From: Escherichia coli
GTDB taxonomy: Bacteria; Pseudomonadota; Gammaproteobacteria; Enterobacterales; Enterobacteriaceae
DNA length: 64,000 bases
Direction: 5' to 3' (one strand)
Assembly (NCBI RefSeq): GCF_024502345.1
Contig: NZ_JALDNN010000001.1
The stretch's first letter is position 1. The number at the start of each line of letters is the position of its first letter. The translations under genes and the position numbers were made by a program. Under the pieces are notes generated by a model. That model saw only the letters and a list, made by a program, of their open reading frames with translations. It did not search any database and was not told where the DNA came from. Below, in pieces: positions 32,049 to 38,922 of this stretch.

Positions 32049-32862
32049 TGACCAAATTCTCAGTGGTTGTCGCAGGCGGTGGAAGCACCTTTACGCCAGG
32101 CATCGTGTTGATGCTCCTGGCGAATCAGGACCGTTTCCCGCTTCGTGCACTGAAATTTTATGATAACGATGGTGCGCGGCAGGAAGTGATTGCCGAAGCC
32201 TGTAAAGTCATCCTTAAAGAGAAAGCGCCGGACATTGCGTTTAGTTACACCACCGATCCTGAAGTGGCATTCAGCGACGTTGATTTTGTCATGGCGCACA
32301 TCCGCGTCGGCAAGTACCCGATGCGCGAACTGGATGAAAAAATCCCACTGCGCCACGGTGTTGTTGGTCAGGAAACTTGCGGACCCGGCGGAATAGCGTA
32401 CGGCATGCGTTCCATTGGCGGCGTCCTGGAACTGGTGGATTATATGGAAAAATATTCACCAAATGCCTGGATGCTCAACTACTCCAACCCGGCAGCAATT
32501 GTCGCAGAAGCCACGCGTCGTCTGCGCCCGAATGCGAAAATCCTCAACATCTGTGACATGCCAATCGGTATTGAAAGCCGGATGGCGCAAATTGTTGGGC
32601 TGCAAGATCGCAAACAGATGCGCGTGCGCTACTACGGCCTGAACCACTGGTGGTCGGCGATATCCCGCAGTTTCAGAAAGGGTTAATGAGTCAGCAAGTG
32701 GCGGTGGAAAAACTGGTCGTGGACGCCTGGGAACAGCGTTCATATCAGCACCTGTGGCAGGCGATTACGTTGTCGAAAACGGTACCGAGCGCCTCGGTCG
32801 CCAAAGCTATTCTGGATGAGTTGCTGGAGGCCAACAAAGCGTACTGGCCAGAGTTACGTTAA
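32048..32862 (+). pseudogene. glvG: GH4-family 6-phospho-glucosidase remnant (frameshifted, internally shortened)
   Basis: 212-aa N-terminal GH4-like ORF (32048-32686) then the C-terminal part in another frame (32650-32862); combined length well below a typical GH4 enzyme. Confidence 0.6.
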
Positions 32863-33752
32863 TTGTGTGGACTGGCATCCGTTGGGTGCTGGTCCGTATT
32901 CTTTAGCACGGCTGACGGCGCATAACCAAATTTATGTTTAAAGGCTTTGCTGAAATGAAAGGAGTCGAAGAAGTTGAGCGTATCAGCGACTTCGCCAACC
33001 GAGTTTCCTTGTTGCTTTAATAGCGATAGCGCCAGATCCAGACGCGCATCGAGGTAATATTCTTTCGGCGTCTTGCCGGTATAGCGTAAAAACAGACGAC
33101 GCAACCAGGCTTCGCTACAGGGGATCGTGGCAGCCATATCAGCTACGCTCCAGCGTTGTTGCAGACTGGCATGTAAAGTGGCAATTAATTTTTCAATTTG
33201 CCGCCGTTGTGGATCTTTTTTACCATCTGCGTACATAAGACAAATCCACTGATAAATAATTTTCGTCAGAAAAGCGACTGCCAGATTATTTTTTATTGCT
33301 TCTGGTGAAGTTATTAACTCAGCAACTTCGGTGAGTTCCTGATTATAAATTTCGCCATTATAAATAACGCTTTGCTGACCAACGGGAATATCCATCATAC
33401 TGGTGGGGGTAAATTCCATCCAGTACTGTTCCCAGACTAAACCTTCACAGTGATAAGAGTGAATATCCATTGGCTTTAAAAATATAATACAGTTGCCATG
33501 CAGTGTTATTTGTTCGCCATTCTTTAAAAGAATTTTCCCACATCCTTGTACGGTATACACCGCAACCCATGAGTTGGCGATAAGCGGTTTCTTCTTATCC
33601 CGCGGCCAGATCACCCGGTAATGCTCGTCGGCGTAGGTATGCCAGAGCGAGATCAGAGAAATTCCGCTGGAGATCACATTTTCGTTAATCAATAAGGGAA
33701 TATTGTACGGAGTTTCGTTTTTTACATCTGAACTTTGCAATTTTCCATTCAT
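32859..33752 (-). CDS. yidL: AraC-family transcriptional regulator YidL
   Basis: Start at [10 protein letters not shown] (ATG 33750-33752); C-terminal AraC HTH. Confidence 0.8.
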
Positions 33753-33918
33753 TTTAATATCCCTCCGGCGAATTATGCTCACAACCTGAACTTAACAGAA
33801 AACAATCCGTTCAGGGATACGACGTTTGTATTTTAAGAATCTGACTGCCTGACCCGACGCATTTTACCTCTCCCTATATTCATGCGTCCGGGACATAAAC
33901 ATAAATAAGGGCTATGAG

Positions 33919-35634
33919 ATGAATTCGTTACAAATCTTGAGTTTTGTCGGTTTTACGCTGCTGGTGGCGGTGATCACCTGGTGGAAGGTCCGCAAAACAG
34001 ATACCGGATCGCAACAAGGCTATTTTCTTGCCGGACGTTCACTAAAAGCGCCGGTTATTGCCGCTTCGTTAATGCTAACCAACCTTTCCACGGAACAACT
34101 GGTCGGCCTTTCCGGGCAGGCCTACAAAAGCGGCATGTCGGTGATGGGCTGGGAAGTGACTTCAGCGGTGACGCTGATCTTCCTCGCGCTAATCTTTTTA
34201 CCGCGCTATCTGAAGCGCGGCATTGCCACCATCCCCGATTTTCTGGAGGAACGTTATGATAAAACGACGCGTATTATCATCGACTTCTGCTTCCTCATTG
34301 CCACCGGCGTCTGCTTTCTGCCGATTGTTCTCTACTCCGGCGCGTTGGCGCTCAACAGCCTGTTTCACGTCGGGGAATCGCTACAGATTTCTCACGGTGC
34401 GGCTATCTGGCTACTGGTAATTTTGCTTGGTCTGGCGGGAATTTTGTATGCGGTGATCGGCGGACTGCGCGCAATGGTAGTGGCGGACTCCATCAACGGT
34501 ATTGGGCTGGTTATCGGCGGGTTGATGGTGCCGGTATTTGGCCTGATCGCGATGGGCAAGGGCAGCTTTATGCAGGGCATTGAGCAACTCACCACCGTTC
34601 ACGCCGAGAAATTAAACTCAATCGGTGGCCCGACCGATCCCTTGCCGATTGGCGCGGCATTTACCGGTTTGATTCTGGTGAACACCTTTTACTGGTGTAC
34701 AAATCAGGGCATCGTGCAACGCACGCTGGCGTCAAAAAGCCTGGCGGAAGGGCAAAAGGGGGCGCTGTTAACGGCGGTGCTGAAAATGCTCGACCCGCTG
34801 GTACTGGTGCTGCCAGGGTTGATTGCGTTTCATCTGTATCAGGATTTACCGAAAGCCGACATGGCCTACCCGACGCTGGTCAATAACGTTCTGCCAGTGC
34901 CAATGGTGGGTTTCTTCGGCGCGGTGTTATTTGGTGCGGTGATCAGTACCTTCAACGGCTTTCTGAATAGCGCCAGTACGTTATTCAGTATGGGTATTTA
35001 CCGTCGCATCATTAACCAGAATGCCGAGCCGCAGCAGCTGGTCACCGTCGGGCGCAAATTTGGTTTCTTTATCGCTATCGTTTCGGTGCTGGTCGCGCCG
35101 TGGATCGCCAACGCGCCGCAGGGGCTGTATAGCTGGATGAAACAGCTCAACGGCATTTACAACGTGCCGCTGGTTACCATCATCATTATGGGCTTTTTCT
35201 TCCCGCGCATCCCGGCGCTGGCGGCAAAAGTGGCGATGGGGATTGGCATAATCAGCTACATCACCATCAACTATCTGGTGAAGTTCGACTTCCATTTCCT
35301 CTATGTGCTGGCCTGTACGTTCTGCATCAACGTGGTCGTGATGCTGGTGATCGGTTTTATCAAACCGCGCGCCACGCCGTTCACCTTCAAAGATGCGTTT
35401 GCGGTGGACATGAAACCGTGGAGAAACGTCAAGATCGCGTCAATTGGCATCCTGTTCGCGATGATTGGCGTCTATGCCGGGCTGGCTGAATTCGGCGGCT
35501 ACGGTACGCGCTGGTTAGCGATGATCAGTTATTTCATTGCCGCCGTAGTGATTGTCTACCTGATTTTTGACAGCTGGCGGCATCGTCACGACCCAGCCGT
35601 AACCTTTACTCCCGACGCGAAGGATAGCCTATGA
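33919..35634 (+). CDS. yidK: sodium:solute symporter family transporter YidK
   Basis: 571-aa polytopic ORF, divergent from yidL. Confidence 0.85.
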   Translation: MNSLQILSFVGFTLLVAVITWWKVRKTDTGSQQGYFLAGRSLKAPVIAASLMLTNLSTEQLVGLSGQAYKSGMSVMGWEVTSAVTLIFLALIFLPRYLKRGIATIPDFLEERYDKTTRIIIDFCFLIATGVCFLPIVLYSGALALNSLFHVGESLQISHGAAIWLLVILLGLAGILYAVIGGLRAMVVADSINGIGLVIGGLMVPVFGLIAMGKGSFMQGIEQLTTVHAEKLNSIGGPTDPLPIGAAFTGLILVNTFYWCTNQGIVQRTLASKSLAEGQKGALLTAVLKMLDPLVLVLPGLIAFHLYQDLPKADMAYPTLVNNVLPVPMVGFFGAVLFGAVISTFNGFLNSASTLFSMGIYRRIINQNAEPQQLVTVGRKFGFFIAIVSVLVAPWIANAPQGLYSWMKQLNGIYNVPLVTIIIMGFFFPRIPALAAKVAMGIGIISYITINYLVKFDFHFLYVLACTFCINVVVMLVIGFIKPRATPFTFKDAFAVDMKPWRNVKIASIGILFAMIGVYAGLAEFGGYGTRWLAMISYFIAAVVIVYLIFDSWRHRHDPAVTFTPDAKDSL

Positions 35635-37728: not shown

Positions 37729-38076
37729 ATGAAAATTTCCCGCCTTGGAGAAGCGCCCGATTACCGCTTCTCGCTGGCTAATGAGCGTACTTTTCTGGCG
37801 TGGATCCGTACCGCACTAGGATTTCTGGCGGCGGGGGTTGGGCTTGATCAACTTGCGCCAGATTTCGCCACGCCCGTCATTCGTGAACTGCTGGCGTTGT
37901 TGTTGTGTCTGTTTTCCGGCGGGTTAGCAATGTATGGCTACCTGCGCTGGTTACGCAATGAAAAAGCGATGCGTCTGAAAGAGGACCTGCCCTACACCAA
38001 CAGCTTATTAATCATTAGCTTAATATTGATGGTCGTGGCGGTGATCGTTATGGGACTGGTGTTGTATGCCGGATAG
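37729..38076 (+). CDS. yidH: inner membrane protein YidH (DUF202)
   Basis: 115-aa membrane ORF. Confidence 0.8.
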   Translation: MKISRLGEAPDYRFSLANERTFLAWIRTALGFLAAGVGLDQLAPDFATPVIRELLALLLCLFSGGLAMYGYLRWLRNEKAMRLKEDLPYTNSLLIISLILMVVAVIVMGLVLYAG

Positions 38077-38428
38077 CCGCAAAGCCAGACGCATTGCCGA
38101 CCCAGGACTGCAGCCGGAGCGCACATCACTGGCGTGGTTTCGTACCATGCTGGGCTACGGCGCGTTGATGGCGTTGGCTATCAAACACAACTGGCACCAG
38201 GCGGGCATGTTATTCTGGATTTCGATTGGCATTCTCGCCATCGTGGCGCTGATCCTCTGGCACTACACCCGTAATCGCAATTTAATGGATGTCACGAATA
38301 GCGATTTTTCCCAATTTCACGTAGTCCGTGACAAATTTTTGATCTCCCTCGCGGTGTTATCTCTCGCAATACTGTTTGCTGTAACGCATATACATCAACT
38401 TATCGTATTTATTGAGAGAGTCGCATGA
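38066..38428 (+). CDS. yidG: inner membrane protein YidG (DUF202)
   Basis: 120-aa membrane ORF overlapping yidH stop. Confidence 0.8.
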   Translation: MPDSRKARRIADPGLQPERTSLAWFRTMLGYGALMALAIKHNWHQAGMLFWISIGILAIVALILWHYTRNRNLMDVTNSDFSQFHVVRDKFLISLAVLSLAILFAVTHIHQLIVFIERVA

Positions 38429-38922
38429 CAGGAAGTCAGGTCATTGATGCTGAAGAGGACAGGCATAAACTGGTTGTAGAGTACAAGGATGCTCTGCAAC
38501 CTGCCGATTTTTATCACAATTTCAAACAGCGGGGCATCCGCTCCGTACAGCTCATTCCCTATCTTGAATTTGATGACCGGGGCGATCTGACGGCCGCTTC
38601 GGTGACAGCAGAGCTGTGGGGGAAATTTTTAATTGCCCTGTTCGAGTGTTGGGTGCGGGCAGATATCAGTCGTATCTCGATTGAGCTTTTTGACGCCACC
38701 TTACAAAAATGGTGTGGCAGCGAAAACCCGCAACCGCGCCGTGACTGCCAGGCGTGCGACTGGCATCGCCTGTGCCCGCACGCTCGGCAGGAGACGCCAG
38801 ACAGCGTGCTTTGTGCGGGCTATCAGGCGTTTTATTCTTACTCCGCACCGCATATGCGGGTGATGCGTGATCTGATAAAGCAGCATCGTTCTCCCATGGA
38901 GCTGATGACGATGCTGCGGTGA
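38425..38922 (+). CDS. yidF: truncated sulfatase-maturating enzyme-like protein YidF
   Basis: 165-aa ORF with Cys-rich C-terminal motifs (CQACDWHRLCPH) but no CxxxCxxC radical-SAM motif. Confidence 0.7.
   Translation: MTGSQVIDAEEDRHKLVVEYKDALQPADFYHNFKQRGIRSVQLIPYLEFDDRGDLTAASVTAELWGKFLIALFECWVRADISRISIELFDATLQKWCGSENPQPRRDCQACDWHRLCPHARQETPDSVLCAGYQAFYSYSAPHMRVMRDLIKQHRSPMELMTMLR

Follow-up and report, generated by a model that had tools for sequence, protein, structure and literature searches.

YidF of Escherichia coli, a probable catalytically inactive descendant of an anaerobic sulfatase-maturating enzyme linked to two DUF202 membrane proteins

The window analysed here is a 64,000-nucleotide stretch of Escherichia coli DNA (contig NZ_JALDNN010000001.1 of assembly GCF_024502345.1), and the subject of this report is the group of yid genes that it carries between positions 32859 and 38922, above all yidF, which appears to encode a strongly reduced derivative of an anaerobic sulfatase-maturating enzyme (anSME). 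The interval 32000-40000 is E. coli chromosome, matched by 5422 of 5426 complete genomes at identities of up to 99.8%, and all of the yid genes in it are already annotated in E. coli K-12, so that the locus itself is known. The genes are arranged as yidL (minus strand), yidK-yidJ (plus), yidI (minus), yidH-yidG-yidF (plus), and emrD (minus), the last being convergent with yidF. The original prediction, made from the sequence alone, had placed yidL divergent from yidK and yidJ, and every coordinate and orientation in it was borne out; yidF, which it described as lying nearby, is indeed in the same region but is separated from yidJ by yidI on the opposite strand, yidH, and yidG. Stop and start codons overlap by 4 nucleotides (nt), as ATGA, at the yidK/yidJ and yidG/yidF junctions, and yidH and yidG overlap by 11 nt. 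The features are as follows, with protein lengths in amino acids (aa).

32859-33752, minus strand: yidL, AraC/XylS-type regulator, 297 aa from the ATG at 33752 (RefSeq coordinates)
33753-33918, no strand: putative divergent control region of yidL and yidK-yidJ (from the gene coordinates and the yidL promoter mapping of PMC3950696)
33919-35634, plus strand: yidK, sodium:solute symporter, 571 aa (PF00474, NF007790)
35631-37124, plus strand: yidJ, Cys-type S1 sulfatase, 497 aa (PF00884, PF16347)
35784-35816, plus strand: predicted formylglycine signature CTPARAGLFTG (YidJ residues 52-62, by motif search), with Cys52 as the residue for oxidation
37171-37620, minus strand: yidI, small predicted membrane protein, no family match
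37729-38076, plus strand: yidH, DUF202 membrane protein, 115 aa (PF02656)
38066-38428, plus strand: yidG, second DUF202 membrane protein, 120 aa (PF02656)
38425-38922, plus strand: yidF, reduced anSME derivative, 165 aa (partial TIGR03942 match, anSMEcpe alignment)
38746-38814, plus strand: YidF cysteine motif C108-x2-C111-x5-C117...C130, aligned with the auxiliary cluster II (Aux II) [4Fe-4S] ligands of anSMEs
38827-38919, plus strand: YidF C-terminal tail, residues 135-165 (...SAPHMRVMRDLIKQHRSPMELMTMLR), the best-conserved part

In all, 70 related loci were compared, 63 from a scan of species-representative genomes and others fetched. The intact order, found in Citrobacter, Atlantibacter, Kluyvera, Trabulsiella, Pseudocitrobacter, Erwinia, and Psychromonas, is AraC regulator, sodium:solute symporter (SSS), sulfatase, DUF202, DUF202, and a full-length anSME of 364-407 aa that carries both PF04055 and PF13186. 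Other Enterobacteriaceae have a full-length enzyme at the position that yidF occupies in E. coli. In Citrobacter freundii CP056232 the intact cassette lies at the same yidE...emrD site, and in Erwinia typographi it lies at a different chromosomal site; the Psychromonas cassette (51% identity) adjoins GH88, LamB, and second SSS genes. Against TIGR03942 the C. freundii and Atlantibacter enzymes score 483 and 473 bits (cut-off, 349), and 28 of the 30 full-length orthologues have the CxxxCxxC motif. An anSME gene that appears split in an Atlantibacter metagenome-assembled genome (L006) was not accepted as truly split: the break is an assembly artefact at 'NN', and an intact 374-aa protein 99% identical to it exists. 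yidI occurs only in Escherichia, Salmonella arizonae, and a few Citrobacter and is absent from most intact cassettes, in which the yidJ-yidH gap is mostly some 45-120 nt; it looks like a lineage-specific insertion that would have divided an ancestral operon.

Several of these loci deserve separate mention. In Psychromonas ossibalaenae (L073, 3699-12858) the sulfatase-DUF202-DUF202-anSME block adjoins genes for an AraC regulator, a LamB porin, a GH88 protein, and an SSS transporter. We take GH88 to be the unsaturated glucuronyl hydrolase family, and this neighbour hints at sulfated unsaturated uronate disaccharides as the substrate class of the cassette. A full cassette in AP025685.1 (L009), labelled Salmonella Choleraesuis, lies beside a typA/bipA-like GTPase gene and not at yidE...emrD; its proteins are 64-83% identical to those of E. 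coli, and the organism label looks doubtful. In Enterobacter sp. CC120223-11 (L054), yidLKJ are deleted and the full-length anSME gene is left intact, with a short remnant of the yidJ 3' end (94% identical across 4% of the protein, at 7711) directly before yidH.

At the corresponding position in E. coli, YidF matches no Pfam domain at E <= 0.01, neither PF04055 nor PF13186, and the CxxxCxxC motif that holds the [4Fe-4S] cluster cleaving S-adenosylmethionine (SAM) is absent from it. Domain searching returned no complete maturase domain set: the match to the NCBIfam anSME model TIGR03942 is partial, falls into two stretches, and scores 75.4 bits against a cut-off of 349.45, and its barrel stretch covers model positions 160-245 only. 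In the sequence match to anSMEcpe (PDB 4K36/4K37), the YidF segments 27-95 and 103-152 pair with 175-246 and 312-370, respectively. The alignment with the C. freundii orthologue (BLASTP, E = 1e-38) joins YidF residues 16-165 to 158-370 of that enzyme around a 63-residue gap, which takes the first half of the SPASM domain with three conserved cysteines, those of auxiliary cluster I (Aux I), and leaves four. YidF opens with MTGSQV at the overlap with yidG, where the full-length enzymes open with MTGC(H/Q)VMAKPASSRCNLxCRYC, and this common MTGS/MTGC start indicates two in-frame internal deletions rather than a 5' truncation, one removing the radical-SAM core and the other the first half of SPASM. 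About 85 residues of the barrel, from its final third, are retained, together with four cysteines and the C-terminal helix. The original prediction, in which YidF kept only the C-terminal part of a maturase, was therefore right about the missing CxxxCxxC and has to be amended in that the original start is kept and the first SPASM half is also lost.

The retained part has conserved features of its own. All 34 short forms have its CxxC and last cysteine, and a third or fourth cysteine is always there too; on the published anSMEcpe structure, we take these cysteines to be the Aux II ligands. The tail (residues 135-165) is near-invariant in short and full-length forms alike. An AlphaFold2 model of YidF built from the family alignment has a mean predicted local distance difference test score (pLDDT) of 80 and a predicted template modelling score (pTM) of 0.79, and its best Foldseek match is anSMEcpe 4K37 (E = 2.5e-6, template modelling score 0.62-0.65). 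Set against the anSMEs (AtsB/AslB/ChuR; anSMEcpe, 4K36-4K39; TIGR03942), YidF has the same position, the same start, the equivalent of residues 158-246, the CX2CX5C...C motif, and the C-terminal helix, and its position, sequence, and fold match mark it as a descendant and positional orthologue of the cassette anSME. Unlike them, it is without CxxxCxxC, some 150 barrel residues, and the first SPASM half with the three Aux I cysteines. Without the SAM-cluster motif, the core of the barrel, and one half of SPASM, it would be unable to act as a radical-SAM maturase, that is, to carry out the reaction of its family and make formylglycine by radical chemistry. Because the first SPASM half is gone, a single four-cysteine site is left, which loosely resembles the single-auxiliary-cluster arrangement of Twitch enzymes among the Twitch/SPASM radical-SAM enzymes. 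Twitch enzymes keep the radical-SAM core, and their cluster corresponds to Aux I. In YidF, by contrast, the core is gone and the retained site is the Aux II equivalent.

The short form is widespread. It was found in at least 8 genera, and in E. coli it is fixed, with 5420 of 5426 genomes carrying it at >=95% identity; no full-length yidF allele, and no DNA resembling the deleted core, was found among the E. coli genomes searched. Of the 5422 genomes that match the 8-kb stretch 32000-40000, 5102 cover at least 80% of it, and with yidF kept in 5420 this means that some strains are without part of glv or yidLKJ. Among the 30 loci with a full-length gene, 17 have yidLKJ and 13 do not. Among those with a short (162-192 aa, n = 34) or mid-length (n = 2) gene, 10 have yidLKJ (in Escherichia, S. 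arizonae, Superficieibacter, UBA5654, Klebsiella oxytoca, and Klebsiella spallanzanii) and 24 do not, two short loci being left unclassified (L013, with no yidJ upstream, and L056, in which the contig ends inside yidJ). The association between the short form and loss of yidLKJ is weak (Fisher p = 0.042, with phylogeny ignored). The constant partners are yidH and yidG, which precede the yidF/anSME gene in 70 of 70 loci. Both are assigned to PF02656 (cut-off, 23.4 bits), YidH at 69.8 bits (E = 2.8e-19) and YidG at 46 bits (E = 7e-12). The gene that follows yidF varies with the genus (emrD or a PALP-family gene), and the tail is conserved all the same. Two further proteins of 315-327 aa, P0295 and P0328, whose amino-acid composition looks like that of a high-G+C source, are anSME-like and without CxxxCxxC, and the short-form profile matches one stretch of them; from these sequences, dead anSME derivatives may exist beyond the Enterobacteriaceae.

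Comparison of short and full-length sequences indicates that the short form arose more than once. Short forms from Leclercia and Silvania nest with full-length forms from Leclercia in 94 of 100 bootstraps and have in common with them a 5-residue deletion and a C-terminal extension. A single origin of all short forms was rejected, since none of the 100 bootstraps unites all short forms in one clade, and indels and C-terminal extensions specific to a genus are common to its short and full-length forms. The Escherichia, Salmonella, Citrobacter, and Klebsiella short forms may go back to a single event (45 of 100). Intermediates of 192-360 aa exist, and those of 220-360 aa show eroded motifs and smaller deletions; in the 192-aa form of Citrobacter amalonaticus ku-bf3, CxxxCxxC is still there and the remaining core is gone. 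The genes of RIT691 (360 aa; L048, 8503-9585), in which the second Cys of CxxxCxxC is replaced by Ser and 14 aa are deleted from the SPASM half, and of Kosakonia oryziphila (350 aa; L046, 8527-9579), with a 23-aa deletion in the SPASM half, look like early stages of maturase decay. We infer from this pattern a stepwise excision of dispensable parts in which in-frame events alone survived.

yidF is under purifying selection in many genera, whether or not the sulfatase is present. The ratio of nonsynonymous to synonymous substitution rates (dN/dS), computed in seven groups of short forms, ranges from 0.10 to 0.30 (Escherichia, 0.16; Citrobacter, 0.18; Klebsiella, 0.10; Salmonella, 0.10; Superficieibacter, 0.21; Leclercia/Silvania, 0.30), and in full-length genes the corresponding region has values of 0.09-0.13. 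In the Escherichia tail, dN/dS falls to 0.055 at a dS of 0.49, values which show that conservation acts on the protein and not on the DNA; a DNA-level constraint on the tail (terminator, small RNA, or antisense transcript) was ruled out by this dS, and a promoter and terminator consensus scan of 37050-39050 returned nothing useful. Among species-level loci, the frame is intact in 34 with a short and 2 with a mid-length gene, and 2 short-type loci are broken; one full-type locus, in Enterobacter sp. EA-1 (L070), is also frameshifted. In a neutral simulation with substitutions only, the frame survived in 0.5% of runs at K = 0.3 substitutions per site. The dN/dS of the two DUF202 genes is 0.009 for yidH and 0.076 for yidG.

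On the sulfatase side, YidL matches PF00165 (in two stretches), PF12833, and PF02311, with an AraC double helix-turn-helix at the C-terminus and an AraC-type ligand-binding domain at the N-terminus. The longest yidL open reading frame (ORF) is 32859-33782, opening at a GTG at 33782, and the RefSeq start is 33752. A transcription start has been mapped at the annotated GTG (33782 here; PMC3950696), and translation probably begins at the ATG at 33752, yielding the RefSeq protein of 297 aa. The yidL promoter is repressed by H-NS and activated by BglJ-RcsB (PMC3950696), and the H-NS repression suggests that the locus is normally silent. YidK matches PF00474 at 171 bits (E = 4e-50) and NF007790 at 852 bits (cut-off, 401). 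YidJ matches PF00884 at 244.5 bits over residues 4-341 and also PF16347, and its CTPARAGLFTG fits the signature (C/S)-x-P-x-R-x4-TG with Cys, making it a Cys-type sulfatase; since the domain begins at residue 4, the protein would be without a signal peptide and cytoplasmic. The solved structures closest to YidJ are those of carbohydrate sulfatases (E = 1e-45 to 1e-39), and assignment of a substrate from them was dropped because they are too distant. CTPARAGLFTG is invariant across 28 YidJ orthologues, beside full-length and short maturases alike. Moreover, dN/dS in Escherichia is 0.049 for yidJ, 0.028 for yidK, and 0.042 for yidL, compared with 0.049, 0.057, and 0.058 in Citrobacter with the full maturase. 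With constraint equal to or stronger than that in Citrobacter and an invariant motif, YidJ appears to be in use. According to the original prediction, the sulfatase, an orphan, might be inactive unless matured in trans; maturation in trans is what these selection data suggest, and the dN/dS of 0.03-0.05 in all three genes speaks against the orphan, inactive picture.

If YidF cannot act as a radical-SAM maturase, the formylglycine of YidJ would have to come in trans. In E. coli K-12, aslA-aslB and ydeN-ydeM are sulfatase/maturase pairs. Like the yid locus, each couples a sulfatase gene with an anSME-family gene; unlike the gutted yid maturase, AslB and YdeM, whose genes lie outside the window, have their full length. 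Beyond what these pairs contain, the yid cassette has a symporter, an AraC regulator, two DUF202 proteins, and a cytoplasmic sulfatase. E. coli is credited with two putative anSMEs, AslB and YdeM (PMC8379841), and a passage of the same article, citing Benjdia et al. 2007, refers to a suspected third formylglycine system in this organism as unidentified.

Taken together, we favour the reading that YidF is a catalytically dead anSME derivative with a second role, probably with YidH/YidG, and that YidJ is matured in trans, and we put its probability at about 0.6. The ancestral six-gene cassette would serve the use of a sulfated sugar, with YidL as regulator, YidK as Na+ symporter, YidJ as cytoplasmic Cys-type sulfatase, YidH/YidG as a membrane pair, and the anSME as the sixth member. 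In E. coli, two in-frame internal deletions have reduced the anSME gene to the 165-aa YidF, with its start still translationally coupled to yidG, and the locus would normally be silenced by H-NS; if only in-frame loss of dispensable parts survives, separate lineages would converge on the same architecture. YidF would then be a pseudoenzyme with a non-catalytic or single-cluster role, likeliest with its invariant partners YidH/YidG and perhaps as a single-cluster or binding subunit of the DUF202 pair, and YidJ might be matured by AslB or YdeM anaerobically or by the suspected oxygen-dependent E. coli system. Like other pseudoenzymes, YidF is without catalytic motifs, under purifying selection, and set in a conserved gene neighbourhood; most described pseudoenzymes, however, keep the whole fold, and YidF has had over half of the protein excised. 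As for its partners, Vtc1-3 are listed among DUF202 proteins (PMC7283521), and the eukaryotic VTC polyphosphate-polymerase subunits have the DUF202 transmembrane part (PF02656) in common with YidH and YidG; unlike them, the bacterial proteins stand alone, paired, and linked to a sulfatase and an anSME. An anion-channel role for YidH/YidG, for example the efflux of sulfate after cytoplasmic desulfation, is a guess by analogy and is offered as speculation. YidH has surfaced in a screen for D-alanine export, which a transport assay did not confirm (PMC10299036). Our searches of the published literature turned up no functional work on YidF, on YidJ, or on a link between DUF202 and anSME, and as far as they show, a mini-anSME that is conserved, recurrent, and coupled to DUF202 proteins is undescribed.

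Several points weigh against this reading. The positions of the third and fourth cysteines swap among lineages, something not usually seen where a cluster site is fixed, and pLDDT across the cysteine region of the model is low, at 53-62. Short yidF has a dN/dS 1.5- to 2-fold above that of the full-length genes, and the E. albertii type strain and Leclercia NCTC13032 carry frameshifted copies of yidF; these two observations imply that constraint on yidF is weaker than that on the neighbouring genes. The tree was made by neighbour-joining on 149 columns, and recombination between alleles could imitate multiple origins. That YidJ is matured in trans is deduced from selection on its gene, and production of YidF, its binding of a cluster, and its contact with YidH/YidG are all putative.

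A further-reaching reading would make the YidF-type mini-proteins and YidH/YidG a module in their own right, evolved repeatedly by excision of the core, either as a third, oxygen-dependent and radical-SAM-independent route to formylglycine or as a single-[4Fe-4S] controller of a DUF202 anion (sulfate) channel; we consider this unlikely. The view that yidF is a functionless, truncated leftover, with yidLKJ cryptic or inactive in E. coli since the maturase is gone, is the picture that the original prediction implied, and it can draw on much of the evidence given above: YidF has neither the radical-SAM motif nor a Pfam match, yidL is silenced by H-NS, frameshifted yidF alleles turn up occasionally, the short form is enriched where yidLKJ are absent, and yidF evolves faster than its neighbours (83-87% identity within Escherichia, versus 95-99% for YidJ). 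It is contradicted, however, by a dN/dS of 0.16 (0.055 in the tail), by a frame that has stayed open in 36 species-level loci at 40-50% identity against a neutral expectation of <=0.5%, by the conserved cysteines, by fixation of the short form in E. coli, by its persistence in 24 species without yidLKJ, and by the fact that yidJ, yidK, and yidL are as constrained as in species with the full maturase. We therefore regard it as decidedly improbable.

We give the same low standing to the idea that YidF is a sulfatase-binding chaperone or holdase, keeping the signature peptide unfolded for another anSME and acting with the sulfatase rather than with YidH/YidG. The parent enzyme binds the signature peptide, the fold match to anSMEcpe includes the peptide-bound structures 4K38 and 4K39, and short YidF is found together with yidJ in Escherichia, Klebsiella oxytoca, Superficieibacter, and S. 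arizonae; yet short forms are mostly found without an adjacent sulfatase (24 versus 10), and it is yidH and yidG, rather than a sulfatase gene, that are its invariant neighbours. Very unlikely, in our view, is formylglycine formation by YidF itself, alone or with YidH/YidG and without radical SAM, for example as the oxygen-dependent system of E. coli. Ten species pair a strongly constrained yidLKJ with short YidF, and CxxC and two more cysteines are conserved, as such an activity might lead one to expect. The catalytic region of the anSME is deleted, however, short YidF persists in the 24 species without yidLKJ, and we know of no chemistry by which a YidF-like fragment would oxidise Cys. The third formylglycine system suspected in E. 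coli, as mentioned in PMC8379841 with reference to Benjdia et al. 2007, would offer such an activity a place. That the frame is kept for translation itself (translational coupling, stability of the yidHG message, or a DNA or RNA signal overlapping it), with no part played by the protein, is scarcely credible in spite of the yidG/yidF overlap and the exclusively in-frame deletions, because yidF lies downstream of yidG and its translation cannot drive that of yidG, amino acids are conserved while synonymous sites vary (tail dN/dS 0.055, dS 0.49), specific cysteines are invariant, and the tail is conserved whichever gene lies downstream.

Two observations concern the flanks of the locus. On one side, at 32048-32862 and downstream of a phosphotransferase system gene, a family-4 glycosidase gene (glvG-like) is broken into ORFs 32048-32686 and 32650-32862; its equivalent in strain NCTC9064 is flagged as frameshifted by PGAP. 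On the other, several overlapping ORFs, perhaps repeat sequence, lie on the minus strand at 40141-40475 between emrD and the ilvB leader; the reference annotation has ysdE and tisB in this intergenic stretch.

The missing radical-SAM motif in YidF is, by itself, nothing new, and to call YidF a "radical SAM protein", as automatic labelling does, is wrong in functional terms. What may matter is the comparative result, in which a maturase has been cut to below half its size repeatedly and always in frame, with the remnant under selection and coupled to DUF202 proteins. This gives a handle on the function of bacterial DUF202 proteins and on a possible second role for the C-terminal part of anSMEs, and also on how Cys-type sulfatases are matured in E. 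coli without a dedicated enzyme, a question that dates from 2007.

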